Below, piece after piece: positions 2,705-31,517 of a DNA stretch of 32,000 nt (within the stretch, counting starts at the first letter, position 1; each line of letters starts with the position of its first letter). A model generated the notes under the pieces. It worked only from the letters and a program-made list of their open reading frames with translations, had not been told where the DNA came from and made no database searches. The translations under genes and the position numbers were made by a program. Origin of the DNA: Synechococcus sp. A15-24 (GTDB lineage: Bacteria; Cyanobacteriota; Cyanobacteriia; PCC-6307; Cyanobiaceae); NCBI RefSeq assembly GCF_014280195.1, contig NZ_CP047960.1:1710001-1742000 (forward strand), in the 5' to 3' direction.

Positions 2705-4384
2705 ATGTCATTGATTCATGGCTTGAACACCCGCAATCTGCGGGGTGACCTGCTTGGGGGGCTGACCGCAGCCGTGGTGGCTTTGCCTCTGGCTCTGGCT
2801 TTCGGCAATGCAGCCCTTGGTCCGGGTGGAGCGATTTACGGCCTTTACGGGGCCATCGTCACGGGATTTGTTGCAGCACTGCTCGGGGGGACCCCGTCCC
2901 AGGTGAGCGGGCCGACTGGGCCCATGAGCGTCACGGTGGCAGGAGTGGTCTCCAGCCTGGCTGCTGTCGGTGTGTCCACAGACCTCTCGGCTGGCGAGAT
3001 GTTGCCGTTGGTGATGGCTGCCGTTGCCATCGGCGGCGTCTTCGAAGCAATGCTCGGCGTACTTCGTCTGGGACGGTTCATCACCCTGGTGCCCTATTCC
3101 GTGGTCTCTGGGTTCATGTCGGGGATTGGCTTCATCATCTTGATCCTGCAACTGGGACCATTCGTTGGTGTGACCACAACGGGGGGAGTCGTCGGATCTC
3201 TGAGCACACTGGCCGAATTGCCGTTGCCGAATCCGGCAGCGATCAGCATCGGCGTGATGACCCTTGCAGTGGTCTTCCTCACACCAGCACGGATTCGCCA
3301 ATGGATGCCATCACCACTGTTGGCCCTGCTCATCGTGACGCCGTTGTCGATGTTGATGTTCAACGACGACCGATTGCAGTCGTTGGGGGTTGAACCGCTC
3401 AACCGCATCGGCGCCATTCCAGAGGGGGGGCTCCGTTTTGTCCTTCCAGACTTCAGTCAACATCTGCCGGAACTGCTCAAAGCAGGGATGGTCCTGGCTT
3501 TGCTTGGAGCGATCGATTCATTATTGACGTCTCTTGTGGCCGACAACATCACCCAGACGAGCCATGACTCCAACCGAGAGCTGATCGGTCAGGGCATCGC
3601 GAACACCGCCTCAGGACTGCTTTCAGGACTGCCTGGTGCTGGAGCCACGATGCGGACGGTGATCAACATCAAGTCGGGAGGAAAGACGCCGCTGTCAGGC
3701 ATGACCCACTCCGTGGTGCTGCTGCTTGTTCTTCTCGGGGCAGGATCCATGGCTGCGGAAATCCCGACAGCCTTACTGGCTGGAATCCTGATCAAGGTGG
3801 GGCTCGACATCATTGACTGGGGCTTCCTGCTCAGGGCCCATCGGCTTTCGGTCAAAACCGCTGCGTTGATGTACGCGGTGATGTTGATGACCGTGTTCTG
3901 GGATCTGATCTGGGGGGTGTTGGTTGGCATGTTCGTCGCCAATCTGCTGACGGTGGATGCCATCACCCAGACCCAGCTGCAGGGGATGGATGAGGACAAT
4001 CCAATCGATGGAGGTGTAGCCCTTGGGAGCGACCTCAGCATGGAAGAACAACGACTGATCCAGTCGTGTGGCAATCAATTGATGCTGTTCCGTCTGAAGG
4101 GGCCCATGAGTTTCGGTGCCGCCAAAGGGATCAGCTCACGCATAGGGCTAGTCAGCAACTGCAGAGTTCTAATCCTCGACATCAGCAACGTCCCCCGAAT
4201 GGGGGTGACCGCAGCACTCGCACTTGAACGCATGGTGGAGGAAGCTCAGGCCCTTGGCAGGTTGACCTTTGTCGCTGGCGCAAATCAGCGGTTACAGGAG
4301 CGGCTGAAAAAATTTGGAATTACTGCACTGATGACAACAAGGCAGGAAGCACTTGAGCGATCTTCAGAATACATCTCAAGGTGA
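2705..4384 (+). CDS. SulP-family inorganic anion transporter with C-terminal STAS domain (sulfate or bicarbonate class not resolvable)
   Basis: The 559-aa ORF is a polytopic membrane protein with an N-terminus typical of SulP (LRGDLLGGLTAAVVALPLALAFG). Its C-terminal soluble region (LMLFRLKGPMSFGAAKG...LILDISNVPRMGVTAALALE) matches the STAS fold pattern. Confidence 0.9.
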   Translation: MSLIHGLNTRNLRGDLLGGLTAAVVALPLALAFGNAALGPGGAIYGLYGAIVTGFVAALLGGTPSQVSGPTGPMSVTVAGVVSSLAAVGVSTDLSAGEMLPLVMAAVAIGGVFEAMLGVLRLGRFITLVPYSVVSGFMSGIGFIILILQLGPFVGVTTTGGVVGSLSTLAELPLPNPAAISIGVMTLAVVFLTPARIRQWMPSPLLALLIVTPLSMLMFNDDRLQSLGVEPLNRIGAIPEGGLRFVLPDFSQHLPELLKAGMVLALLGAIDSLLTSLVADNITQTSHDSNRELIGQGIANTASGLLSGLPGAGATMRTVINIKSGGKTPLSGMTHSVVLLLVLLGAGSMAAEIPTALLAGILIKVGLDIIDWGFLLRAHRLSVKTAALMYAVMLMTVFWDLIWGVLVGMFVANLLTVDAITQTQLQGMDEDNPIDGGVALGSDLSMEEQRLIQSCGNQLMLFRLKGPMSFGAAKGISSRIGLVSNCRVLILDISNVPRMGVTAALALERMVEEAQALGRLTFVAGANQRLQERLKKFGITALMTTRQEALERSSEYISR

Positions 4385-4560
4385 AAGCCAGGACGGAAGC
4401 GCCATTTGTCAAGCAACATCAGCAACTGCACACATCAAGCCCACCCATCACCGGAGCTGGCCAAATGCTGCTATCTAGAGATGGCTTAGTTCGGACGATC
4501 CGATCGAGCTTGGAAGGATGGGCAGTCATCTCCGGAACAAACCCTGCATCGATTTATCAA

Positions 4561-6726
4561 ATGACGATCAGCTCACCTCCTGCCCTCTCATCACTACAGG
4601 GCAATCCACTCGAGCCTCAGGGGACTCACTTTCGTCGATACATAGGCTCCCCTCATCCCTTTGGAAGCACTGTTGAGGCCGATGGGGTTAATTTTTCTCT
4701 TTACAGCAGCAGCGCAACAAGCGTTCAACTGCTTATTTTCTCCAAACCAGACGATCTGGAGCCAGTAAAAGTCATCGATCTGGATGGCAGAGATAATAGA
4801 AGCTTTAACGTATGGCATACCTTCATTGAAGGTGTTAAGCCTGGCATGGGCTATGCCTATCGTGTCGACGGCCCTCGGGAACCTTGGAACGGACAGCGCT
4901 TCGATCCAGAAAAGGTGTTGGTCGATCCATACTCCAAAGGCAATTGCTTAGCGCTATGGGACCGGGGAGCTGCCTGCATGCCAGGCGACAACCTGCACAA
5001 ATCCATGCGCAGTGTCGTCATCGACACCAGCAATTACGACTGGGAGGGTGACGCACCGCTGAAAAAACCAATGGCTGAGACCATTGTTTACGAAATGCAC
5101 GTCGGCGGCTTTACGAAAAGTCCAACAAGCGGTGTCAAGCACCCAGGCACGTATCTTGGACTAATCGAAAAAATACCCTATCTCAAGGAGTTAGGGATAA
5201 CGGCAGTCGAGCTACTACCCGTTTGCAGTTTCGACCATACCGATGTCACCAAAGTCCATGAAGGGCGCAAGCTGGTGAACTATTGGGGCTACAGCACAAT
5301 GGGTTACTTCGCCCCTCACCAAGGATATTGCGTCAGCTCAGATACAAGCCAACATCTCAACGAGTTCCGCGACATGGTAAAAGCCCTGCATCAAGCAGGC
5401 ATCGAAGTCATCCTTGACGTTGTCTACAACCACACTGATGAAGGCAATCATCAAGGGCCAACATTCAGCTTCAAAGGAATCGACAACTCAACATATTATT
5501 ACCTCACTGGTGCAGACGGATCTCGGGAGTTTTATTACGACTACACAGGTTGCGGTAACACCTTTAACTGTAACCACCCTGTTGGAGAAAAGCTGATCAT
5601 CGACTCGCTTCGATTCTGGGTCGAAGAAATGCATGTTGATGGATTCCGTTTTGACGAGGGGTCGGTGTTGAGCCGGGGAGAGGATGGAGCACCACTCGAG
5701 CATCCCCCAGTCGTATGGTCGATTGAACTCGACGACTTACTTGGTCAGTCCAAGGTCATCGCAGAGGCTTGGGACGCCGCAGGCCTTTACCAAATTGGCT
5801 CATTCCCTGGCGCACGCTGGGCCGAATGGAATGGGAAATATCGAGACTGCATTAGGAATTTCATCAAGGGAGAGCCTGGAATCATTGGGGAGGTTGCTGG
5901 AAGAATCACTGGCAGCGCTGATTTGTATCAAGGTCGCCATCACGAACCAACAAACAGCGTCAACTTCGTGACGGCTCACGACGGCTTCACCCTGTATGAC
6001 CTGACTGCTTACAACGAAAAGCACAACTGGGCCAACGGTGAAGGCAACAATGACGGAATCGATGACAACTGCAGCTGGAATTGTGGAGCTGAAGGGGAAA
6101 CAAGTGATCAGTGGATCAATGATTTACGAAAGCGCCAGGTCAAGAATTTTGCGACCATCCATATTTTGTCGATCGGTGTACCAATGATTGTCGCAGGCGA
6201 TGAATTCATGCGCAGTCAAGGTGGAAACAACAACACCTACTGCCACGACAATGAAATCAACTGGTTTGACTGGAATAAGATTCAACAATCAGAGAGCCAG
6301 GAAATGATTCGGTTCTGGTCAATGATCATGGACAAGAGAAAGAGTTACATTGACCATTTCAGGGGAAGATATTTCGAAGGGGGCAGCAACCGTTTTGGTC
6401 TTTACGACGTGTCCTGGCACGGCACAAAATTAAACAGTCCGGGATGGGACGATCCAAATGCATTGTGTCTGGGAATGACTCTTGGCGACACCGCCGAAGA
6501 CACTGATCAAACAAACAATATCCACGTCATGTTCAATATGTATTGGGACGGCGTTGAATTCGAGATACCTCAGGCTCCTGGCCTGAGGTGGTATCGAGCC
6601 ATCGATACCGCTCTTCCAACACCAAATGACATCCAAACTAGAGATCAACAAGTAGCCGTTGATGGCAGCACTTATCTCGTAACTGGAAGAAGCATTGTTG
6701 TTCTCGCTTCGCGAGAAACAAACTGA
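4561..6726 (+). CDS. glgX: glycogen debranching enzyme (isoamylase-type GH13)
   Basis: The four GH13 conserved regions are present: ILDVVYNHT, VDGFRFDEGS, IAEAWD and NFVTAHDGFTLYD. The N-terminal domain (GVNFSLYSSSATSVQLLIF) is like GlgX. I chose the ATG at 4561 (MTISSPP). The ORF track extends to a GTG at 4381. Confidence 0.85.
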   Translation: MTISSPPALSSLQGNPLEPQGTHFRRYIGSPHPFGSTVEADGVNFSLYSSSATSVQLLIFSKPDDLEPVKVIDLDGRDNRSFNVWHTFIEGVKPGMGYAYRVDGPREPWNGQRFDPEKVLVDPYSKGNCLALWDRGAACMPGDNLHKSMRSVVIDTSNYDWEGDAPLKKPMAETIVYEMHVGGFTKSPTSGVKHPGTYLGLIEKIPYLKELGITAVELLPVCSFDHTDVTKVHEGRKLVNYWGYSTMGYFAPHQGYCVSSDTSQHLNEFRDMVKALHQAGIEVILDVVYNHTDEGNHQGPTFSFKGIDNSTYYYLTGADGSREFYYDYTGCGNTFNCNHPVGEKLIIDSLRFWVEEMHVDGFRFDEGSVLSRGEDGAPLEHPPVVWSIELDDLLGQSKVIAEAWDAAGLYQIGSFPGARWAEWNGKYRDCIRNFIKGEPGIIGEVAGRITGSADLYQGRHHEPTNSVNFVTAHDGFTLYDLTAYNEKHNWANGEGNNDGIDDNCSWNCGAEGETSDQWINDLRKRQVKNFATIHILSIGVPMIVAGDEFMRSQGGNNNTYCHDNEINWFDWNKIQQSESQEMIRFWSMIMDKRKSYIDHFRGRYFEGGSNRFGLYDVSWHGTKLNSPGWDDPNALCLGMTLGDTAEDTDQTNNIHVMFNMYWDGVEFEIPQAPGLRWYRAIDTALPTPNDIQTRDQQVAVDGSTYLVTGRSIVVLASRETN

Positions 6727-10408: not shown

Positions 10409-11302
10409 TCAGAGTTTGTTGAACAGCATCAAATCATTGATATCGTCACGAATTTGATTGAGAGCTCCAAGACCAGTAATCAATTGAGATACAGAGGAGC
10501 CGCGAGCACCTGCAAGAGTCATTTTGTGATCAGCCACAAACGTAGCAGTAAACCGCTCTTCAGAAGGCTTAATCATATCTATCAAATCAGATCCACTGGT
10601 TAGGGCTGCCAAGAAACCAGGATCCGAAAAAACAGTCTCTCGATCGAGTGCCGTTGCAAAAGCAATTTCAAAGCAGGCATGGTAGTCCTTGCCAGGCTTT
10701 TCGACATGCTCTACACCTTGAGCGTCAGGGCGGGAAAGATCAATTTCGTCAAATAAATGATAACGCAACTTAGAAACCTCCTTCAAAGAGGAAAGCGAGG
10801 CCATCAATTGATCTGAAATGTAGGTACGGAATTGATCTACAGATGCAGAATCAGCCTTGCGAACCATAACGTGGTAACGAAGCTCTGAGATCGAACCATT
10901 CGGATACGGCTCCGAAAGATTATCAATCAAGGTAACCGTATTACCCAATGATGTCGTGTAACCAATTGCTTTGCTGAAAATATTATGCTCATCGTCCATT
11001 AATATCGTGGAGGCTTGGAACCAAGTCGCACGATCTTCTACTGAGGAGAATGTCAGTTCAGCAACCCCCATAAATTGATCTTCATAGAGTGTGTTGACAG
11101 GGCAACCATCGACGACAGGAAACAGCCCACCCTCATATGGTGAGAGGTGGAATTGCCAATATTCCATTTGGCCAGGCAACCGAGCGCAGACCGGCCCATG
11201 AACATCACGCCAATAGTCGTCAAACTGAGCAAGGGTAATGCCGTCACGCTTCCAAAGCGGAACATAAAAAACGACCTCGGGCGAACGCGGCGTGGATGGC
11301 AT
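10409..11302 (-). CDS. tandem EthD-domain protein (dimeric alpha/beta-barrel superfamily)
   Basis: There are two EthD-like halves. The first is VVFYVPLWKRDGITLAQFDDYWRDVHGPVCARLPG....GVAELTFSSVEDRATWF. The second is LRYHVMVRKADSASVDQFRTYISDQL......ACFEIAFATALDRETVF. The ORF-track start at 11308 is TTG; I use the ATG at 11302. Confidence 0.55.
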   Translation of the reverse strand: MPSTPRSPEVVFYVPLWKRDGITLAQFDDYWRDVHGPVCARLPGQMEYWQFHLSPYEGGLFPVVDGCPVNTLYEDQFMGVAELTFSSVEDRATWFQASTILMDDEHNIFSKAIGYTTSLGNTVTLIDNLSEPYPNGSISELRYHVMVRKADSASVDQFRTYISDQLMASLSSLKEVSKLRYHLFDEIDLSRPDAQGVEHVEKPGKDYHACFEIAFATALDRETVFSDPGFLAALTSGSDLIDMIKPSEERFTATFVADHKMTLAGARGSSVSQLITGLGALNQIRDDINDLMLFNKL

Positions 11303-11512
11303 GTGCAAGAAGAATCTTCTGAAAGTTTAGCTGCAACACACTAGGCAGGCAAAAAGTGGTGCAGGATCAATACAGAAGAATGATGCATCTACGTAGTCAA
11401 CAGATAACGACACACCAAGGCCGTCTAGGGTGTAAAGAGAAGCTGACAAAAGGATTAAGCAGTTGCCACGCAAAACGGTCAGAACTAGGATTGGTGGAGC
11501 ATCTAACTTAAA

Positions 11513-12247
11513 ATGCAGTTTTACAGTGTTGATAAGGAAGAATCACCATCTGCCCTAGGCCATTACCTGCAAGGCATTCAACATTTTGGAATAACCACTC
11601 CCGACCTCAAAAAGTCTCTGACCTTTTATATCGATATCCTTGGAGGACGATTGGCGGTCGGAGGTGATGGATTTTATGGTGTTGAATTACATAATCTACT
11701 ATTTCAACAGGATGAATTAAAGGCAATACAAAATGACGTTAGCGCTGAGGATTGCGGAATCCCGGACCTAAGAGATGGGAACAAAGACGCTCTGGATGTG
11801 CGCTTTATACAGTTCGGCAACACAACCCTAGAGCTTTTGCATTTCAGGCAAGCCCAACAAGATCAGTGGGCGCCAAACGTATACAAAGCAATATCTACAA
11901 GTGTAGGATTTGCGAATGTATCTCACCTATCGTTTTTCCTGAGATCCGATGTTGATGTAAATGAATTTGCGTTGAAGCTCGAGGCGGAATCGCACAAAAG
12001 AGGGCTGACCGAGGTCAAAGTTCATCGCAAACAACAAGAGACGTCGGGTGAAGCCGGCTCTAAGGAATTTGCGATTGACAAATTTCCTGATTCATTCGAT
12101 GGCTGGTGCTTGATCTATGTGAAAGGACCGAATGGCGAGCAGCTTGAGTTTAACCAAGTGAGATCGATCTGCAAAGACAACTTCAAGGAAGCCCAGCAAC
12201 AGTACAATCGCCTCAACGGTACAGATTACTCGTGGCCGCAGGGATAA
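11513..12247 (+). CDS. VOC-family protein (glyoxalase/bleomycin-resistance/extradiol-dioxygenase fold)
   Basis: The sequence IQHFGITTPDLKKSLTFYIDILGGRL is the canonical VOC first module. A second module lies around FANVSHLSFFLRSDVDVNEFALKLE. Confidence 0.6.
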   Translation: MQFYSVDKEESPSALGHYLQGIQHFGITTPDLKKSLTFYIDILGGRLAVGGDGFYGVELHNLLFQQDELKAIQNDVSAEDCGIPDLRDGNKDALDVRFIQFGNTTLELLHFRQAQQDQWAPNVYKAISTSVGFANVSHLSFFLRSDVDVNEFALKLEAESHKRGLTEVKVHRKQQETSGEAGSKEFAIDKFPDSFDGWCLIYVKGPNGEQLEFNQVRSICKDNFKEAQQQYNRLNGTDYSWPQG

Positions 12248-12284: not shown

Positions 12285-12338
12285 TTATTATAATCAATGT
12301 GGTCGCATTGTTAGGGCATGGCTAGTGTTGATTAGATG
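12285..12338 (+). promoter_or_regulatory. putative promoter and 5' leader element of MCO paralog 1 (duplicated upstream of paralog 2)
   Basis: A TATAAT lies at 12289-12294, within ttattataat. A 19-nt block, ggctagtgttgattagatg, lies at 12320-12338, exactly 30 nt before the start codon. The same layout recurs before paralog 2. Confidence 0.3.
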
Positions 12339-12349
12339 CAACTGATTTC

Positions 12350-15300
12350 ATGAATCTAGCGAATGCCTACATTATTGGTTCGGAAAATCACTCGTCATGG
12401 AGTCAAAATTTCGATCCGGAAGCTTACCTTAAAGTCCTCCCGCAGCACGACAAAAAGCTTGTTTACACAAGCCCCTGGCTTGAATGGCAACAAGGGAACA
12501 AAAACTACAGAGACGGCATCTATTCAGAAGAAGGGCCCAACGGAAGTTATTACTCGAGCTGGGGACCAGAGTCAGACGTCCTGGATGTCGAACTTACGCT
12601 GTCAGACCTCAACGAAATCACGATTCCAGGATTAGGAGTACTAACGCGTAGTACTGCAGACAATGGCACAGCCTACGACGATGGCTTTCAAGCTTACAAC
12701 GGACTCATCCCTGGTCCACTGCTTGTAGTAGATCCGGGAGACACGCTCAAAATTAGGCTTGTCAATGACTTAGAGAACAGAAGCGGGCTTGAACTTGCCG
12801 CTGACACCAATTTGCATACACACGGATTGCATGTAAGTCCACAAGGAGCTGGGGATAACGTTCTAGTTTCACTGTCACCTGGTGAGTCCTGGGAAACTGA
12901 AATCAAAATCCCTGAAAGTCACTTTGTTGGCCCCCAGTGGTACCACCCACATCTTCACGGCGCAACCAATTTACAAGTTTCAAATGGCTTGGCGGGGACC
13001 TTACTTGTCCTGGCATCTGAGGAAGAGGCTGAAGATCTGGACAAATTCAGCCCAGTGGATAATTCCTTCTACTGGATGGCAGTCCAAACTCAATCACTGC
13101 TTCAAGAGGAACGGCCTGCATCGGATACAGATCCTCTTAATCAGGATCCAAATGGGGGAGCCTACAGAATTGGAACGCCACCTATCTATACAGAAATAAA
13201 TGGAATCAAATATTACACCAAATCAGATGCAGCCTACATTGGATATAACTTCAAACCTGATTACTATTCCCCGATAACACCAGGAGGGGATCCATCGGGT
13301 ACTCCATTTGCCTACGGTGGAGGGCTTGCAGGAACCCCAACAGAAAATGTCATTCACACTGTTAATGGACAATACAATCCAACCCTCGATGTTGAGACAG
13401 GGGCCTGGAATGTATTTGGATTTTTAAATGAATCAGTCAATTCCCACTATGTCATTCAATTAATCCGAGAACATCAAGGTGAGTTGTCCCTAGAGGACTT
13501 CCAAGTGATTGCGGTTGACGGTGATGCTGCCGGAGTCGTATCTCAGAGACTGCAATTCGTCACTGAAACCCCTGTAATGGCACCAGGTAATCGAATGACT
13601 GTTCAACAGGCATTCACCGAACCTGGAACCTACTACTTTCTAGCTAACGGTACTGAAGAAATCCTGGGTGATCTCGCACCTGAAGTTGCCAACACGAGCC
13701 TGACCAATGCGTTTGGTGCACCAACACAATTCCAGGGGATCCATGATGGCCATCTGATCTGGGGAGCTCAAGTACTGGCTACGGTAGAGGTATCTGGTGA
13801 TCTATTTGAAGAAAGACCACCAGCGCCGGAGCCAATCGACTATTTACTGGAGGAGGCACAAGAAATTGATACCTGGGTAGCGGAAACCAAAGATGCAATC
13901 GAGCAGGGATCAATTAAGCAGAGAGAATTTGAATGGAATGCAAATTATTCAAGGGTTGCGGGGCCAGGAATAGATGACAACGACCCGTCAACATTTGAAA
14001 ACATGTATTGGATCAATGGCCGATGGTTCGGCCATTCTCCAAGTGAGCAACCTGTGGTTGCCATGCCAATGCTGGGGACCACAGAAGAATGGACTCTTGA
14101 GAACAGCTCACTTGGTTATGGTGCTGTTTGGGGTGAATGGCATCCATTCCACATTCATCAGAACGACTTTGTAGTCACTGAAATCAATGGCATCGATGTC
14201 GAAGATATACCATCATACCCAGCAAACCAACTGGTAGATACAGTTACACTCGCCGGCGCATATATACCTGGTTCAGCCACGGAAACAAATCCATACGGCA
14301 CGCCAGCATATTTCAACCCGATAACAAACAGCACCAATGATATACCACTCAACTTTCAAACAAAGATATTCATGAAATTCGAAGATTATCCCGGAGCCTA
14401 TGTTAATCACTGCCATATTCTATTTCATGAAGATGCAGGAATGATGCAAGCAGTAAAAATCATATTAAACACCGATTCGAATTACATCGGATCAGAAAGA
14501 CAAGATTCAAATCCATCATTCAGGATTGGAACGTCGATGATGGATGATTTTTCCATTCAAGCGTTCGGACCCAGAATCAAAAAGGCAAATATTGCCATCG
14601 GTGATATCAACTATGGCAAGTACTTCAAAAGGGAAAAGCTCGCCGAAACATTTGCAGGGGGGACTGAGGGAGAATCCGACAACATTGCAGACATAGCCAT
14701 CGTCAGCAATCGTGTACAAAGAAATAAAGCAGGATTTGATATCAAGCTATACGACGGAGACTCAGTCAATCAAGCTGTAACGGGATCCTATAAATTAAAG
14801 AAGGATCAAGGTAAATCGGCGGAAACCACACTTGCTGGAGACGAAAACCTACTCACAACAATCAAGGCCTTTGCTAAGAAGAAGTCGAGAACACTGAGGT
14901 CATCGGTTGCAATTGGTGATATCAACGGTGATGGACATGGTGACATCATCATTGGAATTGGAGGTAAGGATACGGAGCCATTGATCGAAATCTACAGCGG
15001 AAAAGATTATGAAAAGCTCGCCAAAATCAAGCCGTTTAGAAAAAACAACTCTAAAACAACGGTTAACATTGCAGCAGGTGATATTAATTCTGACAATTTT
15101 GTAGACATATTGGTCGGCCAAGGGGCAGGTGGAATGGGCATGGTCGAAGTTTACGATGGACGAGCTATAACATCAGTTGTCAAAAATAATGATGGCAGCA
15201 ATATCGATGCAGCAAAGACTCAAGATGTAAATCCATACAAAGGCAAAAAAGTCGCAAAGGTGACGGAGGCATACGCAGATATGTTCCATCCCTATGAAGG

Positions 15301-15769
15301 ATACACAGGTGAAGTTGATGTAGCCGCAGGCTATATTCTGCCAAGACCGAATGCATCAGAAGATAAAGGTCAGATTGTCCAGACAAGCTATGCAAACTTC
15401 ACAACACTTGCAGTTGATATGAAATCAAGCGAGGAAAACCCCTCGATCAGAAGCTTCTTCTATACCGGAGGAAGTGCACACGCCAATAACAGCAACTCCG
15501 CAGACGAAAGTACTGATGACAGTGGTGGATCACTGCCTTCACTCGCTGTATCCCTGAATATTGAGAAAAAAATTAATAGTATTAACAGTACTTACTTCGA
15601 TCTCTCGAACGCCCATGATGATCGAGGGATGAGCGGTCTTATCATCACAACCAAAAAGGGTGAGGAGTTTCTTCACTACATTGAGCCAACAACCGTGCAA
15701 CAAGGAGAGTTCTCCATCATGGACACTGTGGCAATTAATATCACACCAAACCAATCCTTCATAATATAA
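12350..15769 (+). CDS. multicopper oxidase (three cupredoxin-type regions, all four Cu-ligand motifs) fused to a C-terminal FG-GAP/VCBS-like repeat region, paralog 1
   Basis: The copper motifs are HTHGLH (12815-12832), HPHLH (12944-12958), HPFHIH (14141-14158) and HCHILFHEDAGMM (14408-14446). FG-GAP-like blades lie at about 14580-15345 (IAIGDINGDGHGDIIIGIGG, AAGDINSDNFVDILVGQGAGG). There is no N-terminal signal peptide. Confidence 0.85.
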   Translation: MNLANAYIIGSENHSSWSQNFDPEAYLKVLPQHDKKLVYTSPWLEWQQGNKNYRDGIYSEEGPNGSYYSSWGPESDVLDVELTLSDLNEITIPGLGVLTRSTADNGTAYDDGFQAYNGLIPGPLLVVDPGDTLKIRLVNDLENRSGLELAADTNLHTHGLHVSPQGAGDNVLVSLSPGESWETEIKIPESHFVGPQWYHPHLHGATNLQVSNGLAGTLLVLASEEEAEDLDKFSPVDNSFYWMAVQTQSLLQEERPASDTDPLNQDPNGGAYRIGTPPIYTEINGIKYYTKSDAAYIGYNFKPDYYSPITPGGDPSGTPFAYGGGLAGTPTENVIHTVNGQYNPTLDVETGAWNVFGFLNESVNSHYVIQLIREHQGELSLEDFQVIAVDGDAAGVVSQRLQFVTETPVMAPGNRMTVQQAFTEPGTYYFLANGTEEILGDLAPEVANTSLTNAFGAPTQFQGIHDGHLIWGAQVLATVEVSGDLFEERPPAPEPIDYLLEEAQEIDTWVAETKDAIEQGSIKQREFEWNANYSRVAGPGIDDNDPSTFENMYWINGRWFGHSPSEQPVVAMPMLGTTEEWTLENSSLGYGAVWGEWHPFHIHQNDFVVTEINGIDVEDIPSYPANQLVDTVTLAGAYIPGSATETNPYGTPAYFNPITNSTNDIPLNFQTKIFMKFEDYPGAYVNHCHILFHEDAGMMQAVKIILNTDSNYIGSERQDSNPSFRIGTSMMDDFSIQAFGPRIKKANIAIGDINYGKYFKREKLAETFAGGTEGESDNIADIAIVSNRVQRNKAGFDIKLYDGDSVNQAVTGSYKLKKDQGKSAETTLAGDENLLTTIKAFAKKKSRTLRSSVAIGDINGDGHGDIIIGIGGKDTEPLIEIYSGKDYEKLAKIKPFRKNNSKTTVNIAAGDINSDNFVDILVGQGAGGMGMVEVYDGRAITSVVKNNDGSNIDAAKTQDVNPYKGKKVAKVTEAYADMFHPYEGYTGEVDVAAGYILPRPNASEDKGQIVQTSYANFTTLAVDMKSSEENPSIRSFFYTGGSAHANNSNSADESTDDSGGSLPSLAVSLNIEKKINSINSTYFDLSNAHDDRGMSGLIITTKKGEEFLHYIEPTTVQQGEFSIMDTVAINITPNQSFII

Positions 15770-15844
15770 GTTAGAAAATGTCTGGCCAAGTAAAGGAATA
15801 GAATAAAATAAACCTTATTACCCGCAAAGACAAGCTTCAGGTTA

Positions 15845-15898
15845 TTATTATAAATATCTGCAATACATTCTCAAGACTTGGCTAGTGTTAATTAGATG
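15845..15898 (+). promoter_or_regulatory. putative promoter and 5' leader element of MCO paralog 2
   Basis: A TATAAA lies at 15849-15854, within ttattataaa. The block ggctagtgttaattagatg lies at 15880-15898, again 30 nt before the start. It has one mismatch to the paralog-1 copy. Confidence 0.3.
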
Positions 15899-15909
15899 AG
15901 GCTTGCCCC

Positions 15910-18900
15910 GTGACTCTTAATGATGCATACATCATTGGTTCGGAAAATCACTCGTCATGGAGTCAAAATTTCGATCCGAAAGCATACCTTAAAGTCCTCC
16001 CACAACATAACCAAAAGCTTGCCTACACAAGCCCATGGCTTGAATGGCAACAAGGGAACAAAAACTACAGAGACGGCATCTATTCAGAAGAAGGGCCCAA
16101 CGGAAGTTATTACTCGAGCTGGGGACCAGAGTCAGACGTCCTGGATGTCGAACTTACGCTGTCAGAGCTCAACGAAATCACGATTCCAGGATTAGGAGTA
16201 CTAACGCGTAGTACTGAAGACAATGGCACAGCCTATGACGATGGCTTTCAAGCGTACAACGGACTCATCCCTGGCCCACTGCTTGTAGTAGATCCGGGAG
16301 ACACGCTCAAAATTAGGCTTGTCAATGACTTAGAGAACAGAAGCGGGCTTGAACTTGCCGCTGACACCAATTTCCATACACACGGATTGCATGTAAGTCC
16401 ACTAGGTGCAGGCGATAACGTTCTATTTTCGCTATCACCTGGGGATGCATGGGAAACTGAAATAAAAATCCCAGATAACCACTTTGTTGGACCTCAATGG
16501 TATCACCCCCACCTTCACGGAGCAACAAATCTCCAAGTATCAAACGGGCTCGCAGGAACACTTCTAGTATTAGCTTCAGAAGAAGAAGCCGATGATATAG
16601 ACAAATTTAGTCCAGTGGATAATTCTTTCTACTGGATGGCAATTCAAACACAATCTCTGCTTCAGCAAGAGCGACCAGCATCTTCGAATGACCCACTCAA
16701 TCAAGATCCAAACGGTCTCTCATACAGGATAGGAACACCACCTGTATTTACTGAAGTTGACGGCACAAAAGTATTTACAAAATCGGACGCAGCGTACATA
16801 GGTTACAACTTTAAGCCCGATTATTACGACCCTACTCAGCCAACAGGCGACCCATCAGGTACCCCATTTGCGTATGGAGCAGGGATAGCTGGAACACCAA
16901 CAGAAAATATAATTCATACAGTTAATGGCCAGTACAATCCAACCATTGACGTAGAAACTGGTCAATGGAATGTTTTTGGATTCCTAAATCAGTCCGTTAA
17001 CTCTCACTTTGTCATCCAACTTGTACGTGAATACAAAGGTGAGTTATCGCTTGAGGAATTTCAAGTGATCGCCGTTGATGGAGATGCAGCAGGAGTAGTT
17101 TCGCAGGCACTGCAATTTGTTACCGAAACACCAGTGATGGCTCCCGGCAATCGAATGACAGTTCAGCAAGCTTTTACAAAACCAGGTAAATATTATTTTC
17201 TTGCAAACGGAACAGAAGAAATCCTTGGAGAGTTGGCCCCAGAAGTGGCAAATATAGCCCCTATGAATTTATATGAAACTCCGAGTATTGAGTTCAATCC
17301 GGATTTTGTGCCGAGCGATGTTCAAGGTGCTCTCTACGCAGGAGCAGAAACATGGAACGAACTTAGAAGAGAGGTCTTTGAGGGACCTCTTGATCTATCT
17401 GGAATGCATTTCCCTCCAACATGGGATCTACGAGGATACGATCTGACAAATGTAGATCTAGATGACTCCTTCATGGGTTTGGTGAATTTGACTGATGTTG
17501 ACCTAAGAGGATCAAGTCTGAATAATGTCAACCTAATTGGTGCCAACGTAACCAATACAAATCTTTTCGATGTTGATCTAAGCGGCGCTCTTTTACCGGG
17601 TGGCATTGATCAAGCTTCTAACGCTAAATACGATCAAGACACATATCCATACCAAGGAATTCATGATGGCCACCTAATCTGGGGCGCACAAGTTCTCGCA
17701 ACAGTAGAGGTAACTGGTGAATCAATATCAAGCAGACCTGCCCCACCAGAACCAATTCAATACTTGCTTGAAGAATCAGAAAAGATTGACACTTGGGTAA
17801 GTGATACAAAAAATGCAATTGCCAATGATAATATAAAAAGGAGAAACTTTATTTGGGATGCAAACTATAGTCGGCTCCAAGAAGAAAATAGAATTATAGA
17901 TGACAATGATCCGTCAACATTTGAAGACATGTATTGGATTAACGGAAGGTGGTTTGGGCATTCGCCAAGTGAGCAACCTGTAGTTGCGATGCCAATGCTG
18001 GGGACCACTGAAGAATGGACTCTTCAGAATAGTTCCATAGGCTTTGGTGCAGGTGCTGTAGGAGAATGGCACCCATTTCACATTCACCAAAACGATTTTG
18101 TTGTCACAGAAATCAATGGCATAAATGTAGAGGATATACCATCATATCCAGCCAACCAACTTGTCGACACAGTTACACTAGCTAGTTCTTATGTTCAAGA
18201 TTCAGCTACTGCAAATAATCCCTATGGCAGCCCAGCATATTTCAATCCGATCACTGATAGCATAAATGGGATACCTCAGAATTTCGAAACCAAATTATTC
18301 ATGAAGTTCGAAGATTACACTGGAGCATATGTTAATCATTGTCATATTCTCTTTCACGAAGATGCAGGCATGATGCAGGCAGTGAAAGTAATCCTCAACA
18401 CTGACTCGAACTATATTGGCGCTGAAAAGCAAACCGGTAAGCCCACACTCAGGCTAGGATCATCAATGGTGGATACTTTTTCAATCGATAACAGCGATAA
18501 CTTTAGCAAAAAACTAAACATCGCAATTGGCGATATCAATTTTGGCAAGTTCTTTAGCATGGACAAACTCAGTGACACCTTTAAAGGTGGTACCAAGGGG
18601 GAATCTGATAATATCGCAGACATCGCAATTACCGGAGAAAAGATTGCGAGAAATGAAAGTGGTTTTCAAATAAATGTATATGATGGAGACTCAGTAAGTC
18701 AATCGGCGACAGGCTCATATAAATTAAAGAGAGATCAACAAAAGCAGTCCGAAATAGAATTGTCAGGTGAAGATCATCTTCTAGCAACAATCAATTCCTT
18801 TAGCAAAAAGAAGTCCAAATCAATATCCTCGTCACTGGCAGTCGGAGATATAAATGGTGACGGACACGGGGACATAATTATTGGGATTGGTGGGCCCAAA

Positions 18901-19704
18901 ACAGACCCTATGATTGAAATCTATAGCGGTAATAATTTCGAGAGAATGGCAAAGATAAAGCCATTTTGGCGTTATGGCATGAAAACAAGCATTAATATCG
19001 CCTCTGGAGACATTAATTCAGATAATTTTGTTGATATTCTTGTTGGCCAAGGTTCTGGAGGCATGGGGATGGTGGAAGTATTTGATGGGCGCGCCTTAAC
19101 ATCAGTCATTAAGAATAAACAGGGTAACAACATTGATGATGAGGAAACAGCAGGGATCAAACCATTCAAAGGGAAAAAAGTTGCGCAAGCGACAGAAGCA
19201 TATGACACTATGTTTCATCCATTCCCTGGATATACAGGTGAAGTAGATGTAGCAAGTGGTTATATTTTGCCACGCCCAAGCTACGATCTCGATGATGAAA
19301 TTTCAGAACAAAAAAAAGATCAAATCGTGCAGACAAGCTATGCGAATTTTACAACACTCGCAGTTGATAAGAGATCAAGCGAAGAAGACCCCTCAATCAA
19401 AAGCTTCTTCTATACAGGTGGAAGTTCGCATGCGAATCACAGCGATACCGAACAATCACGTGCTGATCACAGTGAAGGATTATTGCCATCTCTCGCAGTA
19501 TCTCTAAATATTGACAAAAAAATCACTAGCATTAACAATGCATTCTTCGATTTGTCGGACGCGCTTGATGATCGAGGAATGAATGGTCTAGTCATCACCA
19601 CTAGAAAGGGTGAAGAGTACCTTCACTATATAGAGCCAACAACAGTCCAAGAAGGTGAGTTTTCTATCATGGATACTGTAGCAATTAACATCACACCCAG
19701 CTAG
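15910..19704 (+). CDS. multicopper oxidase / FG-GAP fusion, paralog 2, with an inserted pentapeptide-repeat module
   Basis: It has the same four Cu motifs and the same FG-GAP region as paralog 1. Until the insertion it is collinear with paralog 1 at a constant offset of 3560 nt. The GTG start at 15910 aligns exactly with the ATG of paralog 1 (MTLNDAYIIGSENHSS versus MNLANAYIIGSENHSS). Confidence 0.85.
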   Translation: MTLNDAYIIGSENHSSWSQNFDPKAYLKVLPQHNQKLAYTSPWLEWQQGNKNYRDGIYSEEGPNGSYYSSWGPESDVLDVELTLSELNEITIPGLGVLTRSTEDNGTAYDDGFQAYNGLIPGPLLVVDPGDTLKIRLVNDLENRSGLELAADTNFHTHGLHVSPLGAGDNVLFSLSPGDAWETEIKIPDNHFVGPQWYHPHLHGATNLQVSNGLAGTLLVLASEEEADDIDKFSPVDNSFYWMAIQTQSLLQQERPASSNDPLNQDPNGLSYRIGTPPVFTEVDGTKVFTKSDAAYIGYNFKPDYYDPTQPTGDPSGTPFAYGAGIAGTPTENIIHTVNGQYNPTIDVETGQWNVFGFLNQSVNSHFVIQLVREYKGELSLEEFQVIAVDGDAAGVVSQALQFVTETPVMAPGNRMTVQQAFTKPGKYYFLANGTEEILGELAPEVANIAPMNLYETPSIEFNPDFVPSDVQGALYAGAETWNELRREVFEGPLDLSGMHFPPTWDLRGYDLTNVDLDDSFMGLVNLTDVDLRGSSLNNVNLIGANVTNTNLFDVDLSGALLPGGIDQASNAKYDQDTYPYQGIHDGHLIWGAQVLATVEVTGESISSRPAPPEPIQYLLEESEKIDTWVSDTKNAIANDNIKRRNFIWDANYSRLQEENRIIDDNDPSTFEDMYWINGRWFGHSPSEQPVVAMPMLGTTEEWTLQNSSIGFGAGAVGEWHPFHIHQNDFVVTEINGINVEDIPSYPANQLVDTVTLASSYVQDSATANNPYGSPAYFNPITDSINGIPQNFETKLFMKFEDYTGAYVNHCHILFHEDAGMMQAVKVILNTDSNYIGAEKQTGKPTLRLGSSMVDTFSIDNSDNFSKKLNIAIGDINFGKFFSMDKLSDTFKGGTKGESDNIADIAITGEKIARNESGFQINVYDGDSVSQSATGSYKLKRDQQKQSEIELSGEDHLLATINSFSKKKSKSISSSLAVGDINGDGHGDIIIGIGGPKTDPMIEIYSGNNFERMAKIKPFWRYGMKTSINIASGDINSDNFVDILVGQGSGGMGMVEVFDGRALTSVIKNKQGNNIDDEETAGIKPFKGKKVAQATEAYDTMFHPFPGYTGEVDVASGYILPRPSYDLDDEISEQKKDQIVQTSYANFTTLAVDKRSSEEDPSIKSFFYTGGSSHANHSDTEQSRADHSEGLLPSLAVSLNIDKKITSINNAFFDLSDALDDRGMNGLVITTRKGEEYLHYIEPTTVQEGEFSIMDTVAINITPS
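17254..17652 (+). other. 133-codon variable linker in MCO paralog 2 (13 codons in paralog 1 at 13694-13732) containing a pentapeptide-repeat module
   Basis: The flanks are conserved in both paralogs (LAPEVAN before, QGIHDGHLIWGAQVLATVEV after). The insert reads DLRGYDLTNVDLDDSFMGLVNLTDVDLRGSSLNNVNLIGANVTNTNLFDVDLSGALL, which has A(D/N)LXX-type repeats. Confidence 0.7.
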
Positions 19705-19753: not shown

Positions 19754-19793
19754 TAAAAAAATCCAAGCCAAAAGTGTTGGCTTGGACTTTTTT
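19754..19793. terminator. bidirectional rho-independent terminator between convergent genes
   Basis: An A-run (19754-19761) precedes the stem tccaagcca (19762-19770) paired with tggcttgga (19778-19786). A T-run follows at 19788-19793. Confidence 0.65.
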
Positions 19794-20381: not shown

Positions 20382-20658
20382 GGAATTGTTTAATCAATTT
20401 TAATCAGCTCCAACCAATGGCTGAAGCTAACACTTGAAATATAGCCTTCGCAAAGAGGGCGCGCAGCAAGAAAATCAGACCTGTGGCACGTGACACATAA
20501 ACGATCGAATCGAGAACGAGCAAGAAAAATATTGGTGGCGCTTAGACAAGATCCATGCTTCATACAATATATACGAGGAATCCAAGACATTAATTACCCA
20601 AGGTTCTAATGGTCTCGTAAAAATATGCTCTGTTCCAAGAGGGAAAGCTATAGTGAAA

Positions 20659-21324
20659 ATGGGGGAGTCAGGTGTTCCTGCCGACTCCGCAAAACAATTT
20701 AAGTTTACAATCATGTTACTCAGCTCACATGGTCCAGCGAAAGGAAGAGTAGGGGTCTTCATCGAAGATCACTTCGATATGACGGAATATCGAATCTTCA
20801 ATCGCCGTTTTCCTGCTGCAGGATATGAATTAGAGTACATCTCAAATCTTTGGGGCAATCCAACACTTCAGTTTGGCTCTAACCCAGATAACGGATGGGT
20901 TGAGGAGCACATAACAGTCGCTAAAGATGTTGCAGATATCAATCCTACTGACTACAAGGGTTTTCTCCTCATTGGAGCGTACGCCACGGATCGCCTGAGG
21001 TATTCAGTTAAGCCTGAAAAAGGAAAACCGAATGATGCACCCGCCGTTGAACTTTTAAGGAAGATCAATAAAGCGGATGGTGTCAAGATTGGTACAATTT
21101 GCCACTCACTTTGGTTGCTTTGCGCTGACCGTACTCTACTTGAAGGCAAAAAAGTAACGTGCGCCCACAATATCCTATGCGATGTTGAAAACGCAGGCGC
21201 AGAAGTTCAATACGGGGATGACGGAACTGCTGGCAGCTGTGTTGACGGCGACTTAATATCAGCCAAGCACCCTGCATTTACAGATGAATTGATTGATTTG
21301 TTCCTCAAAGAAATTGAAACTTGA
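20659..21324 (+). CDS. DJ-1/PfpI-family protein (class I glutamine amidotransferase-like fold)
   Basis: The nucleophile-elbow motif is KIGTICHSLWLL. It is followed by LLEGKKVTCAHNILCDVENAGAEV. The first strand is RVGVFIEDHFD. The start is uncertain: GTG at 20653, ATG at 20659 or ATG at 20713. Confidence 0.75.
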   Translation: MGESGVPADSAKQFKFTIMLLSSHGPAKGRVGVFIEDHFDMTEYRIFNRRFPAAGYELEYISNLWGNPTLQFGSNPDNGWVEEHITVAKDVADINPTDYKGFLLIGAYATDRLRYSVKPEKGKPNDAPAVELLRKINKADGVKIGTICHSLWLLCADRTLLEGKKVTCAHNILCDVENAGAEVQYGDDGTAGSCVDGDLISAKHPAFTDELIDLFLKEIET

Positions 21325-21381: not shown

Positions 21382-21735
21382 TCACGATCCGTATTTCTCT
21401 TTTAGCTCGTTAAGGCGTCCAAATCCACCGGCAGCTTTATTAAAGCCGCAGTAGACGCAGGCAAACAGAAGAATTTCCTCGATTTCCTCAAATGTAATCC
21501 CTTGCTTTAGGGCCATAGTCACGTGGGCTTCAAAAGGAATACCTGGGCCACTGTACGATTGATTTGCGACGTCTAGCAGAATCGTAAACATCGCTTTGGT
21601 CTTTTGATCAATCAAGGAATGACCCCAGGCCTCTCCAGCAACACGTACACAAAAGTCCCCAAATTTGGGATTGACTCCGTTCAGCGCTTCTTGGAGTTGA
21701 GCATCACCAAGGACGGCATTTTCCTTGAGATCCAT
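21382..21735 (-). CDS. carboxymuconolactone decarboxylase (CMD/AhpD-like) family protein
   Basis: The sequence AGEAWGHSLIDQKTKAMFTILLDVAN....FEAHVTMALKQGITFEEIEEILLFACVYCGFNKAAGGF follows the CMD family pattern. I use the ATG at 21735; the ORF-track start at 21756 is GTG. Confidence 0.75.
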   Translation of the reverse strand: MDLKENAVLGDAQLQEALNGVNPKFGDFCVRVAGEAWGHSLIDQKTKAMFTILLDVANQSYSGPGIPFEAHVTMALKQGITFEEIEEILLFACVYCGFNKAAGGFGRLNELKEKYGS

Positions 21736-22139
21736 AATAATGACAGGCGACAACACATTTTAGCACTCGTGTCGAGTAGTTGCACTGATTCGTCAACGGC
21801 TGAAGATCTGATTTAATTCTGCGTACTTGTGAGCTGAGATTAATGAAAGGAGCCTCGGCGAAAGGGGAGCCGCCTGATAAGCCAAACTAACTACAGATTA
21901 CAGCTAGAAAGCAAAAAATTAAAACCCAATTAGAGCTGGCAATCTAAAGATACCGTCGGCAATTCTAATTTCAGACTGAAACGGTAATCCATATTACCGA
22001 TTGGCATCTCCATGGACGTGCATTAACACATCGTGAAGCGAAGAGACCACTGCCTCGGCAATGGCTAAGGTTTAGATGGTTAGCAATCAACATAGCCTAA
22101 TCCGGCGACCTTCACAAGCTCACAAACTAAAGGTATTTC

Positions 22140-23809: not shown

Positions 23810-24829
23810 ATGATTTCTCAACTTCGGAAGCTCTCCAATCAAATTTCTGCATTTGTTTTATCACTTGTTCTTTTCTGCTTCTCATTCCCTCCAAATGTTC
23901 ACGCAGCTACATCGACAAGGGTGGTTCAGGGAGATAAAATGAATATGGGTAAGGGCGAAGTTTGGACGTGGACAGAAGTCGAAAAGGGTACCGGCACACC
24001 GAGACGGTTGGGGATCACCCTGACCAAATCCGCTCTGGACGGACTTCCCGCTGATGATGAGAAGCCCGAGAAAGGGACTCTGAAGCTAAAACTCATCGAC
24101 GGAAGTCCGTGGCACAATTTTGAATATGAGATGCTTTTTCCTAAAGAGGCTGATCGTACCGCCTACAACCACATGGGGTTGAATTGGAACCCTGAAGGGC
24201 ATGGACCCCTAGAGGATGTCTTCTTTGAACCTCATTTAGACGTGCACTTCTATATGGCGACCACGGATTATCGTCATTCAATTACAAACGACAGCATGGT
24301 CGATCCCGACACTGAAGATCTGCTGGTACAAAACATTGAACCACCTAGAGATTTTCTTCCTGAAGGTTATTATCGTGCCCCAAATACCTCTGAGCCGAGG
24401 ATGGGGACCCACTATGCAGACATGAGCTCAGATCAACTCAAGCCACACAATTTTTCTAATATATTCCTGTTCGGGGGGCACAACGGCAACATCGTATTTT
24501 GGGAGCCTATGCTGACCAGAAAATATCTGCTCTCTAAGCCCGACTTCTCCGCCAAAATTCCCCAGCCTAAGGCTTATCCAGTGAGCGGTTATTATCCTCT
24601 TTCGTATAGCGTCAAATACGATACGAAGCGCGATCTCATCAATGTATCTCTTGATGAGCTCACGTTGAGAGCTGCATCTTATCCAGGTAATGTATATGGA
24701 GTTGACTCTTGCTTAGACTCCAAGATGGTCGACATAATTTTTACTCACAAAGAAGCCAAGCCAAAGGATTTGCAAATTCCAGCAAAATGTCAGCCTCTTG
24801 TCCCGATGATTAAACGAGCACTGAGCTGA
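23810..24829 (+). CDS. Sec-exported protein of unassigned family (shares a domain of about 290 aa with the N-terminus of the 26791..29250 product)
   Basis: The signal peptide is ISAFVLSLVLFCFSFPPNVHA/AT. The conserved motifs NPEGHGP, HLDVHFY, EPMLTRKYLLSK and IPQPKAYPVSGYYPLSY each have a counterpart in the 819-aa protein. Confidence 0.6.
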   Translation: MISQLRKLSNQISAFVLSLVLFCFSFPPNVHAATSTRVVQGDKMNMGKGEVWTWTEVEKGTGTPRRLGITLTKSALDGLPADDEKPEKGTLKLKLIDGSPWHNFEYEMLFPKEADRTAYNHMGLNWNPEGHGPLEDVFFEPHLDVHFYMATTDYRHSITNDSMVDPDTEDLLVQNIEPPRDFLPEGYYRAPNTSEPRMGTHYADMSSDQLKPHNFSNIFLFGGHNGNIVFWEPMLTRKYLLSKPDFSAKIPQPKAYPVSGYYPLSYSVKYDTKRDLINVSLDELTLRAASYPGNVYGVDSCLDSKMVDIIFTHKEAKPKDLQIPAKCQPLVPMIKRALS

Positions 24830-31353: not shown

Positions 31354-31435
31354 GGGTCGGTGCCCGAGTGGTTAATGGGGGCGGACTGTAAATCCGCTGG
31401 CTCTGCCTACGTTGGTTCAAATCCAACCCGGCCCA
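31354..31435 (+). tRNA. tRNA-Tyr (anticodon GTA), long variable arm, CCA not encoded
   Basis: I folded it by hand. The acceptor stem is GGGTCGG/CCGGCCC. The D arm is CCCG..GGGG. The anticodon stem-loop is GCGGA-CTGTAAA-TCCGC. A long variable arm and the T arm GTTGG-TTCAAAT-CCAAC follow, with discriminator A. The layout parallels E. coli tRNA-Tyr. Confidence 0.9.
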
Positions 31436-31445
31436 TCCTCCACAT

Positions 31446-31517
<72 letters not shown>

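Follow-up and report, generated by a model that had tools for sequence, protein, structure and literature searches.

Tandem multicopper oxidase-propeller proteins of Synechococcus sp. A15-24 as candidate exported laccase-type oxidases without a signal peptide

Multicopper oxidases (MCOs) are known for extracellular redox chemistry on phenols, manganese, iron and copper. The bacterial three-domain, laccase-like members, among them the Thermus thermophilus laccase (Tth-MCO, PDB ID: 2xu9), CotA and CueO, carry four copper motifs in the same order on a three-cupredoxin fold, and the manganese-oxidising enzymes MnxG, MofA, MoxA and McoA are large bacterial MCOs with an extracytoplasmic function. 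The sole characterised cyanobacterial MCO returned by our literature search was a laccase of ~66 kDa from Spirulina. In this study, a tandem pair of genes, MCO A and MCO B, was analysed in a 32-kb stretch of the genome of Synechococcus sp. A15-24 (contig NZ_CP047960.1, positions 1,710,001 to 1,742,000), hereafter called the window. An exact-sequence look-up identified the encoded proteins as QNJ29810.1 / WP_186497443.1 (A) and QNJ29811.1 (B), annotated in this strain only as "multicopper oxidase domain-containing protein". The preferred explanation, to which we assign a probability of roughly 0.4, is that both are exported laccase-type oxidases which would act on a small phenolic, aminophenolic or quinol-type substrate and leave the cell by a type-I-like route.

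Like the laccase-like MCOs, A and B have four copper motifs in the same order, and their cores are predicted to adopt the three-cupredoxin fold. All four motifs of the original prediction were found at matching positions in the two proteins (Table 1), and the twelve ligands (H156, H158, H199, H201, H598, H601, H603, H687, C688, H689, H693 and M698 in A) are invariant in a family alignment of 33 sequences, whose members are 35-79% identical to A. The fourth motif, HCHILFHEDAGMM, is aligned by HMMER to HCHIVEHEDRGMM of the Thermus laccase, the Glu and the axial Met included; the signature HCHxxxHEDxxMM is thus common to this enzyme, A and B, and it is also carried by CotA. Pfam profiles of Cu-oxidase_3 (50.9 bits in A and 45.6 in B, gathering cut-off 21) and Cu-oxidase_2 (55 and 48.8 bits, gathering cut-off 20.4) matched both proteins, whereas the middle cupredoxin domain PF00394 was not detected at the sequence level by Pfam in either. 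The identity of A to 2xu9, CotA and CueO is only 16-20%. In contrast to the 430-510 residues of the laccase-like enzymes, the core of A and B comprises ~600 residues, among them long insertions in domain 2 and a helical linker. An N-terminal domain of ~110 aa and a 435-aa propeller are additional, and the Tat or Sec signal and the Met-rich region are missing.

An AlphaFold2 (AF2) model of A (mean predicted local distance difference test score, pLDDT, 82.6; predicted template modelling score, pTM, 0.84) suggested a three-domain laccase fold followed by a propeller unit. Foldseek matched the core to 2xu9, CotA, CueO and bilirubin oxidase with E values from 6e-31 to 1e-25 and TMt of 0.64-0.79, the top match being the Thermus laccase (E 6e-31, TMt 0.77). 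Purifying selection was apparent from the ratio of nonsynonymous to synonymous substitution rates (dN/dS), which amounts to 0.146 between B and its orthologue and to 0.096 between the two copies. Because the ligands are invariant, the model of the core shows a laccase fold and dN/dS lies at 0.10-0.15, A and B are very probably catalytically competent MCOs, which lends support to the earlier expectation of competent catalysts.

The same data bear on the alternative that A and B are adhesins or structural surface proteins with a vestigial oxidase, or decaying cargo of a genomic island. Such a role would fit the integrin-like propeller, the location on a flexible island of low GC content and a variable tandem state; the single-cell genome AG-676-F02 has both A and B, whereas in AG-679-D13 only A is present, directly followed by the gene for a 187-aa protein. 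Nevertheless, the copper ligands are invariant family-wide, dN/dS is 0.10-0.15 in both copies, and both frames are intact and conserved in other genomes and metagenomes, with 42 and 6 member sequences in the 90%-identity clusters. We regard this alternative as very improbable.

Downstream of the oxidase core, FG-GAP was detected by Pfam with 34.8 bits in A and 33.6 in B (gathering cut-off 22.1), so that all three profiles, the two Cu-oxidase families and FG-GAP, exceed their cut-offs in both proteins. The FG-GAP-like blades formerly noted in this region were recovered, including both quoted strings, and residues D857, G860, D861, D911, D915 and D919 of the DxDxDG calcium loops are invariant in the 33-member alignment. 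Modelled alone with AF2, residues 705-1139 of A formed a single compact unit (pLDDT 84.7, pTM 0.88), of which ~420-440 columns were aligned by Foldseek to the propellers of integrin alpha-V and alpha-5. Other matches were a fucose lectin and YesW, with overall E values of 2e-6 to 1e-4 and TMq of 0.35-0.44. From 27 strands, a propeller of about seven blades is inferred. Because the unit is compact in the model and aligns to the integrins, the C-terminal ~130 residues, formerly described as a separate and unassigned tail, most likely form the end of a single 435-aa propeller, as its final blade or blades.

Like the propellers of integrin alpha, those of A and B contain two Pfam FG-GAP blades with DxDxDG loops and are aligned as whole units. 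They differ in that the sequence motif is kept in only two of the ~7 blades, and the TM values of 0.35-0.44 are modest. In a phmmer search of 1.84 billion representative proteins, all full-length matches to the propeller unit (25 representatives, E up to 1e-30) were members of the MCO family, and all other matches were confined to residues 147-235 of the unit, which are the two canonical FG-GAP blades. Unlike integrin alpha, the propeller as a whole unit was therefore found fused to this MCO family alone.

The N-terminal domain, with the consensus AYIIGxxNxxxWSxxFDxxxYLKVLP...YYSSWGP, is present family-wide and occupies the place of a signal peptide. The nearest non-cyanobacterial relatives, whose matches start at ~aa 115, lack this domain and carry signal peptides instead. 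Neither hydrophobic segment nor twin arginine was found at the N-termini of A and B, in agreement with the original prediction that Sec and Tat signals are missing. In-frame stop codons are located seven codons 5' of both starts (TGA at 12329-12331 for A, TAA at 15889-15891 for B), and therefore a longer N-terminus that hides a signal peptide is impossible for either protein. A double-glycine (C39-type) leader in the AYIIG segment was also rejected, as its spacing is wrong, the segment is predicted to be folded (pLDDT ~90) and it is kept after the signal peptide in the sequences P0102 and P0104.

The question of export concerns the family at large. Among the 117 top hits of full length, C-terminal RTX nonapeptide repeats were found in 40, a DUF4114-type module in 22 and neither in 55, and three carry an N-terminal signal peptide (two KRRKL Tat-like, one Sec-like). 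A TARA picocyanobacterial scaffold encodes an RTX-bearing MCO of 1522 aa in the same gene slot as in the window (order: glgX, epimerase-STAS, TPR-2OG, SnoaL, EthD, VOC, MCO, 187-aa gene, DJ-1, CMD), and strain PROS-U-1 has an RTX-bearing MCO in a similar arrangement. RTX-bearing relatives often end with an acidic residue followed by hydrophobic residues; type I C-terminal secretion signals have no usable consensus. A and B resemble RTX type I exoproteins, RTX oxidoreductases among them, in being large, modular, acidic and nearly free of Cys without an N-terminal signal, and the RTX-bearing family members, which include positional orthologues, share the C-terminal nonapeptides of these exoproteins. 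A and B differ from them by the lack of an RTX repeat and of a nearby ABC/membrane fusion protein (MFP)/TolC gene, and secretion of the family is a prediction.

The amino acid composition is in line with this likeness. A (1139 aa) and B (1264 aa) each contain one Cys, the T1 ligand, compared with 1.0-3.2% Cys in the neighbouring soluble enzymes, and their predicted pI is 4.52 and 4.44, respectively. The median Cys count of the family is one, with exactly one in 80 of the 117 members. The single Cys and the pI near 4.5 point to export independent of a signal peptide, which is probable for both proteins as judged from their sequences. Abundant secreted proteins without signal peptides have been described in exoproteomes of marine Synechococcus (PMC4949707). 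The invariant calcium loops of the FG-GAP blades likewise speak for a site of action outside the cytoplasm. The puzzle of export raised in the original prediction thus applies family-wide, and it is partly answered by the RTX repeats and signal peptides of relatives and by the composition. All in all, we consider an extracytoplasmic location of A and B likely.

Alternatively, forms without RTX repeats and signal peptides might remain in the cytoplasm, where they and the cytosolic enzymes encoded next to them would process an aromatic or quinone metabolite inside the cell. Indeed, an export signal can be recognised neither at the N- nor at the C-terminus of A and B, and linkage to neighbours that are themselves devoid of signal peptides persists across the cyanobacteria. 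Yet a single Cys in a chain of over 1100 residues and a pI of 4.4-4.5 are atypical beside the neighbouring cytosolic proteins, and RTX repeats occur in positional orthologues and signal peptides in other relatives and the outgroup. Furthermore, propellers with calcium loops and the loading of copper are poorly compatible with the cytoplasm, and we know of no cytoplasmic bacterial MCO. A cytoplasmic function is accordingly judged to be distinctly unlikely.

The gene pair belongs to a conserved genomic context that was missed in the original prediction. It was found by tblastn of the window neighbours against 78 loci, in which a gene was counted as linked when it was located within 10 kb of an MCO gene (Table 1). 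The placement of the cluster relative to the MCO gene is divergent in Trichodesmium, downstream in Anabaena and upstream in Snowella, and the linkage is kept despite this reshuffling in ~30 loci from picocyanobacteria, Nostocales, Trichodesmium, Crocosphaera and Gloeothece. Because order and orientation vary between lineages, this pattern argues for selection that maintains the linkage and against mere inherited synteny. Some loci have extra genes for a quinone-reductase-like flavodoxin_2 protein or for HpaB, an O-methyltransferase and a halogenase. Overall, the enzyme families of the neighbours point loosely to aromatic or quinone chemistry. An organic substrate is favoured because the linkage to the cluster persists, genes of aromatic and quinone type are nearby and a Met-rich Cu(I) site is lacking.

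A second possibility for the substrate is a metal. A and B would then reach the cell surface in the same way but use Mn(II), Fe(II) or Cu(I) as substrates, be it to detoxify metals, to acquire them or to form a mineral coating, and the neighbours would be co-regulated stress genes rather than partners in a pathway. Their nearest solved relatives by sequence, the Thermus MCO, Campylobacter McoC and CueO, are of the metallo-oxidase type, and both proteins have an axial Met ligand, as is usual for bacterial MCOs of lower potential. A CDF cation-efflux gene is located two genes upstream of the MCO gene in one syntenic marine locus and hints at a metal substrate, and a stress regulon is suggested by the partner-switching regulators (STAS, RsbW-like, SpoIIE) found at several loci. 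On the other hand, no NCBIfam equivalog came near its cut-off: CueO, the best, scored 75 bits against 525, CopA (copper_res_A) 47 against 479 and PhsA 54 against 950, which bears out the earlier statement that A and B fit no characterised MCO class. A Met-rich segment is missing, with at most 3 Met per 30 aa, a Pfam scan of the window detected no copper or manganese homeostasis gene, and the CDF gene was seen in a single lineage only. In view of these points, metal oxidation is considered rather unlikely.

Two known types of metal oxidase were rejected individually. Because of the low profile scores and the maximum of 3 Met per 30 aa, A and B are not cuprous oxidases of the CueO/CopA type, and a twin-arginine N-terminus is lacking as well. 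MnxG is a six-domain MCO, whereas three cupredoxin domains are predicted for the cores of A and B, and a Pfam scan found no mnx or mof accessory genes (MnxE/MnxF) in the window, which argues against a manganese oxidase of the MnxG type; among the manganese-oxidising MCOs, the comparison of domain number covered MnxG.

If A and B are exported laccase-type oxidases, the T1 copper, bound by Cys688, His598, His693 and Met698, would take single electrons from the substrate, and O2 would be reduced to water at the trinuclear cluster of the eight other histidines. In this proposal the oxidase is fused to a C-terminal, calcium-binding propeller resembling that of integrin alpha, which could serve as a docking or substrate-presenting module, and to the N-terminal domain of ~110 aa, which appears to be specific to cyanobacteria. 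Both proteins would act on the surface of the cell or in the surrounding medium. Export would be post-translational and independent of a signal peptide; a type-I-like system (ABC/MFP/TolC) encoded elsewhere in the genome would be the most likely route, and copper and calcium would be loaded after export. The substrate would be tied to the neighbours EthD, NTF2-like, CMD, VOC, DJ-1 and SnoaL.

A number of observations weigh against this explanation. A domain scan detected no ABC-exporter, HlyD or TolC domain in any open reading frame (ORF) of the window, as anticipated by the original prediction for type I secretion genes, and five inspected neighbourhoods of relatives, RTX-bearing ones and one with a signal peptide, had no exporter genes either. 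Signal peptide, RTX repeats and DUF4114 are all absent from 52 of the 117 relatives. A and B contain no GGxGxDxUx nonapeptide repeats and end ~8 residues past the point where the RTX modules of relatives start; if the type I signal is located in the RTX module, both proteins lack it. All conserved neighbour proteins are without a signal peptide, which fits a cytoplasmic pathway, and the CDF gene mentioned above must also be counted here. The predicted structure, while confident in the surrounding fold, has pLDDT values below 50 in the HCH loop itself (aa 685-697 of A, 14402-14440), which may result from the shallow 33-sequence alignment or from the missing metals. Finally, the EthD/NTF2-like/CMD cluster is missing from several MCO loci of Oscillatoriales and from a second MCO subfamily of picocyanobacteria, and Ca. 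Magnetoovum (Nitrospirota) has DJ-1, the 187-aa gene, EthD, CMD, Pirin, glgX and epimerase-STAS without an MCO. The occurrence of each without the other indicates that a functional link between MCO and cluster is not obligatory.

A wider scenario, which must be called doubtful, is a cyanobacterial invention in which an extracellular oxidase lost its signal peptide and gained the N-terminal domain and the propeller. Its members, even those devoid of RTX repeats, would be exported by an unrecognised route without a signal and form the outer arm of a conserved two-compartment system. The cytosolic arm would then be the EthD/NTF2-like/CMD/VOC/DJ-1/SnoaL cluster (plus glgX and epimerase-STAS), and a redox-active aromatic compound might be produced or detoxified by this system on the cell surface of abundant marine phototrophs. 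The MCO-propeller family could affect the chemistry of trace metals or dissolved organic matter at the surface of very abundant cells, and the nearly one half of its members without a known export signal poses a testable question of secretion.

A and B belong, according to sequence comparison, to an uncharacterised MCO-propeller family that is spread cyanobacteria-wide. Homologues with MCO and FG-GAP were found in marine and freshwater picocyanobacteria, but are not confined to them; further holders of the architecture are Snowella, Geminocystis, Crocosphaera, Gloeothece, Pleurocapsales, Pseudanabaenaceae, many Oscillatoriales, Trichodesmium erythraeum IMS101 and many Nostocales. Relatives beyond the cyanobacteria are just 25-28% identical. 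Full-text searches yielded nothing on the MCO-propeller family or its neighbouring gene cluster, and where cyanobacterial FG-GAP exoproteins come up in the literature, no connection to MCOs is drawn. The second picocyanobacterial subfamily, which is 33-35% identical to A, also occurs in tandem pairs (locus L042, 9974-17405; locus L043, 6226-13510) without a nearby EthD/CMD cluster, and its C-termini often read ...ADYFSWA.

The original prediction had placed the pair at 12285-19704; two adjacent and collinear genes for proteins of 1139 and 1264 aa were found there, although position 12285 itself is intergenic and the first start codon is at 12350. A and B are 87% identical across the N-terminal 459 aa and 71% across the C-terminal 684 aa, their main difference being an insertion of ~122 aa with pentapeptide repeats (PF00805) in B, which appears as a gap in the A/B alignment. 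In the N-terminal 440 residues, A and B are 88.9% identical, compared with 85-86% between A and its orthologues, whereas the C-terminus shows the reverse; the synonymous divergence dS between A and B is 1.0 in the first 440 codons and 2.2 in the remainder. This N-terminal identity above that of the orthologues and the lower dS suggest partial gene conversion between the two genes.

The pair is located on an island from ~4.4-9 kb to ~30.1 kb of the window, with a GC content of 0.40-0.47 compared with 0.58-0.61 in the flanks, and the island adjoins miaE, aroQ and tRNA-Tyr/tRNA-Thr (31354-31517). In all picocyanobacteria examined, the MCO genes lie on low-GC islands, mostly of 41-45% GC in genomes of ~60% GC, and one has 52% GC in a genome of 67-77%. 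The MCO genes of Nostocales and Trichodesmium, in contrast, equal the local GC content. The low GC content of the island, a point overlooked in the original prediction together with the pentapeptide insertion of B and its origin, suggests that A and B were acquired horizontally.

Table 1. Features of the MCO locus, with coordinates counted from the first nucleotide of the window; numbers of loci refer to the 78 loci searched by tblastn.
Feature	Position	Strand	Remarks
MCO A, 1139 aa	12350-15769	+	ATG start; ORF, Pfam, exact-sequence look-up
A, N-terminal domain, ~110 aa	12350-12679	+	conserved in 33-sequence alignment; pLDDT ~90
A, copper motif 1, HTHGLH	12815-12832	+	aa 156; invariant H156, H158
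A, copper motif 2, HPHLH	12944-12958	+	aa 199; invariant H199, H201
A, copper motif 3, HPFHIH	14141-14158	+	aa 598
A, copper motif 4, HCHILFHEDAGMM	14408-14446	+	aa 687; holds T1 Cys688, Glu694, axial Met698
A, integrin-alpha-like propeller unit, aa 705-1139	14462-15766	+	AF2 model, Foldseek
A, FG-GAP blade with calcium loop, GDINGDGHGDIIIG	14915-14956	+	Pfam, motif search
A, FG-GAP blade with calcium loop, GDINSDNFVDILVGQG	15077-15124	+	Pfam, motif search
MCO B, 1264 aa	15910-19704	+	GTG start; paralogue of A
B, N-terminal domain	15910-16239	+	equivalent of that of A
B, copper motif 1, HTHGLH	16375-16392	+	aa 156
B, copper motif 2, HPHLH	16504-16518	+	aa 199
B, pentapeptide-repeat insertion, aa 469-573 (insert ~aa 460-580)	17314-17628	+	B-specific; PF00805
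B, copper motif 3, HPFHIH	18070-18087	+	aa 721
B, copper motif 4, HCHILFHEDAGMM	18337-18375	+	aa 810
B, propeller unit	~18391-19701	+	equivalent of that of A
B, FG-GAP blades	18844-18885; 19006-19053	+	Pfam, motif search
Shared 20-nt motif TGGCTAGTGTTRATTAGATG	12319-12338; 15879-15898	+	ends 11 nt before each MCO start
Bidirectional terminator-like hairpin	19755-19793	.	between convergent ends of B and 187-aa gene; consensus scan
glgX-like debranching enzyme	4381-6726	+	within 10 kb in 12 loci; wider cluster
GlcNAc-2-epimerase-like protein with STAS domain, 719 aa	6781-8940	+	12 loci; wider cluster
Double-EthD protein	10409-11308	-	Pfam; within 10 kb in 31 loci
VOC/glyoxalase-fold protein	11513-12247	+	Pfam; within 10 kb in 20 loci
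NTF2-like protein, 187 aa	19818-20381	-	no Pfam match; within 10 kb in 31 loci
DJ-1/PfpI	20653-21324	+	Pfam; within 10 kb in 16 loci
CMD-family protein	21382-21756	-	Pfam; within 10 kb in 33 loci
Four tandem SnoaL-like (NTF2-fold) paralogues, 121-143 aa	22140-23770	+	Pfam; SnoaL within 10 kb in 14 loci
OprB porin			within 10 kb in 20 loci
Pentapeptide-repeat protein, 819 aa	26791-29250	+	segment matching B insert: aa 623-728 = 28657-28974

The pentapeptide insertion of B has a counterpart in the same island. Residues 469-573 of B match residues 623-728 of the 819-aa pentapeptide-repeat protein with 66% identity over 106 aa (E 2e-43), and therefore the insert and the 819-aa gene, which is located 7 kb downstream of B, have a common origin in the island. 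In the model of A, the position of the insert corresponds to a surface loop of low confidence, where pLDDT dips to 64 at aa 451-460. The 819-aa protein contains no Cys, has a pI of 4.28 and is without a signal peptide; it may be exported without a signal peptide as well, and one could speculate that the shared pentapeptide module gives B and the 819-aa protein a common partner or fate. Its gene follows those of a TTHB210-like protein (23810-24829), whose signal peptide is clear, and of an OprB/SLH porin. In tblastn searches, the 819-aa protein and the TTHB210-like protein hit a common region in the Calothrix and Tolypothrix loci L022 and L026.

The upstream regions of both MCO genes share the motif TGGCTAGTGTTRATTAGATG and, 5' of it, a TTATTATAA box; no exact copy of TGGCTAGTGTTRATTAGATG was found in the other loci. 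A regulatory RNA upstream of the genes was rejected, as the only Rfam matches in the window were the two tRNAs. A consensus scan found no terminator-like site on the + strand between A and B.

The 187-aa protein of the conserved cluster had no match in Pfam or NCBIfam, nor in the PDB at E values up to 10, and a homologue was named NTF2-family protein by one source. It is rich in Cys (6 Cys, 3.2%) and highly conserved from picocyanobacteria to Nostocales to a Nitrospirota genome (~65-70% identity), with an overall identity of 64-72% among picocyanobacteria, Nostocales, Trichodesmium and non-cyanobacterial genomes (855 hits). The SnoaL-like genes are present in other lineages as one, two or a fused double copy. 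Loci in which the cluster was recorded are L001, L007, L013, L017, L030, L048, L080, L082 and L085. In the syntenic marine loci L085 and L001, the CDF gene (8152-9084 in L085) lies between the EthD and VOC genes, as does a gene for a conserved protein of 498-518 aa without a Pfam match (7497-9053 in L001 and 6592-8088 in L085), a short distance upstream of the MCO gene; neither is present in the window.

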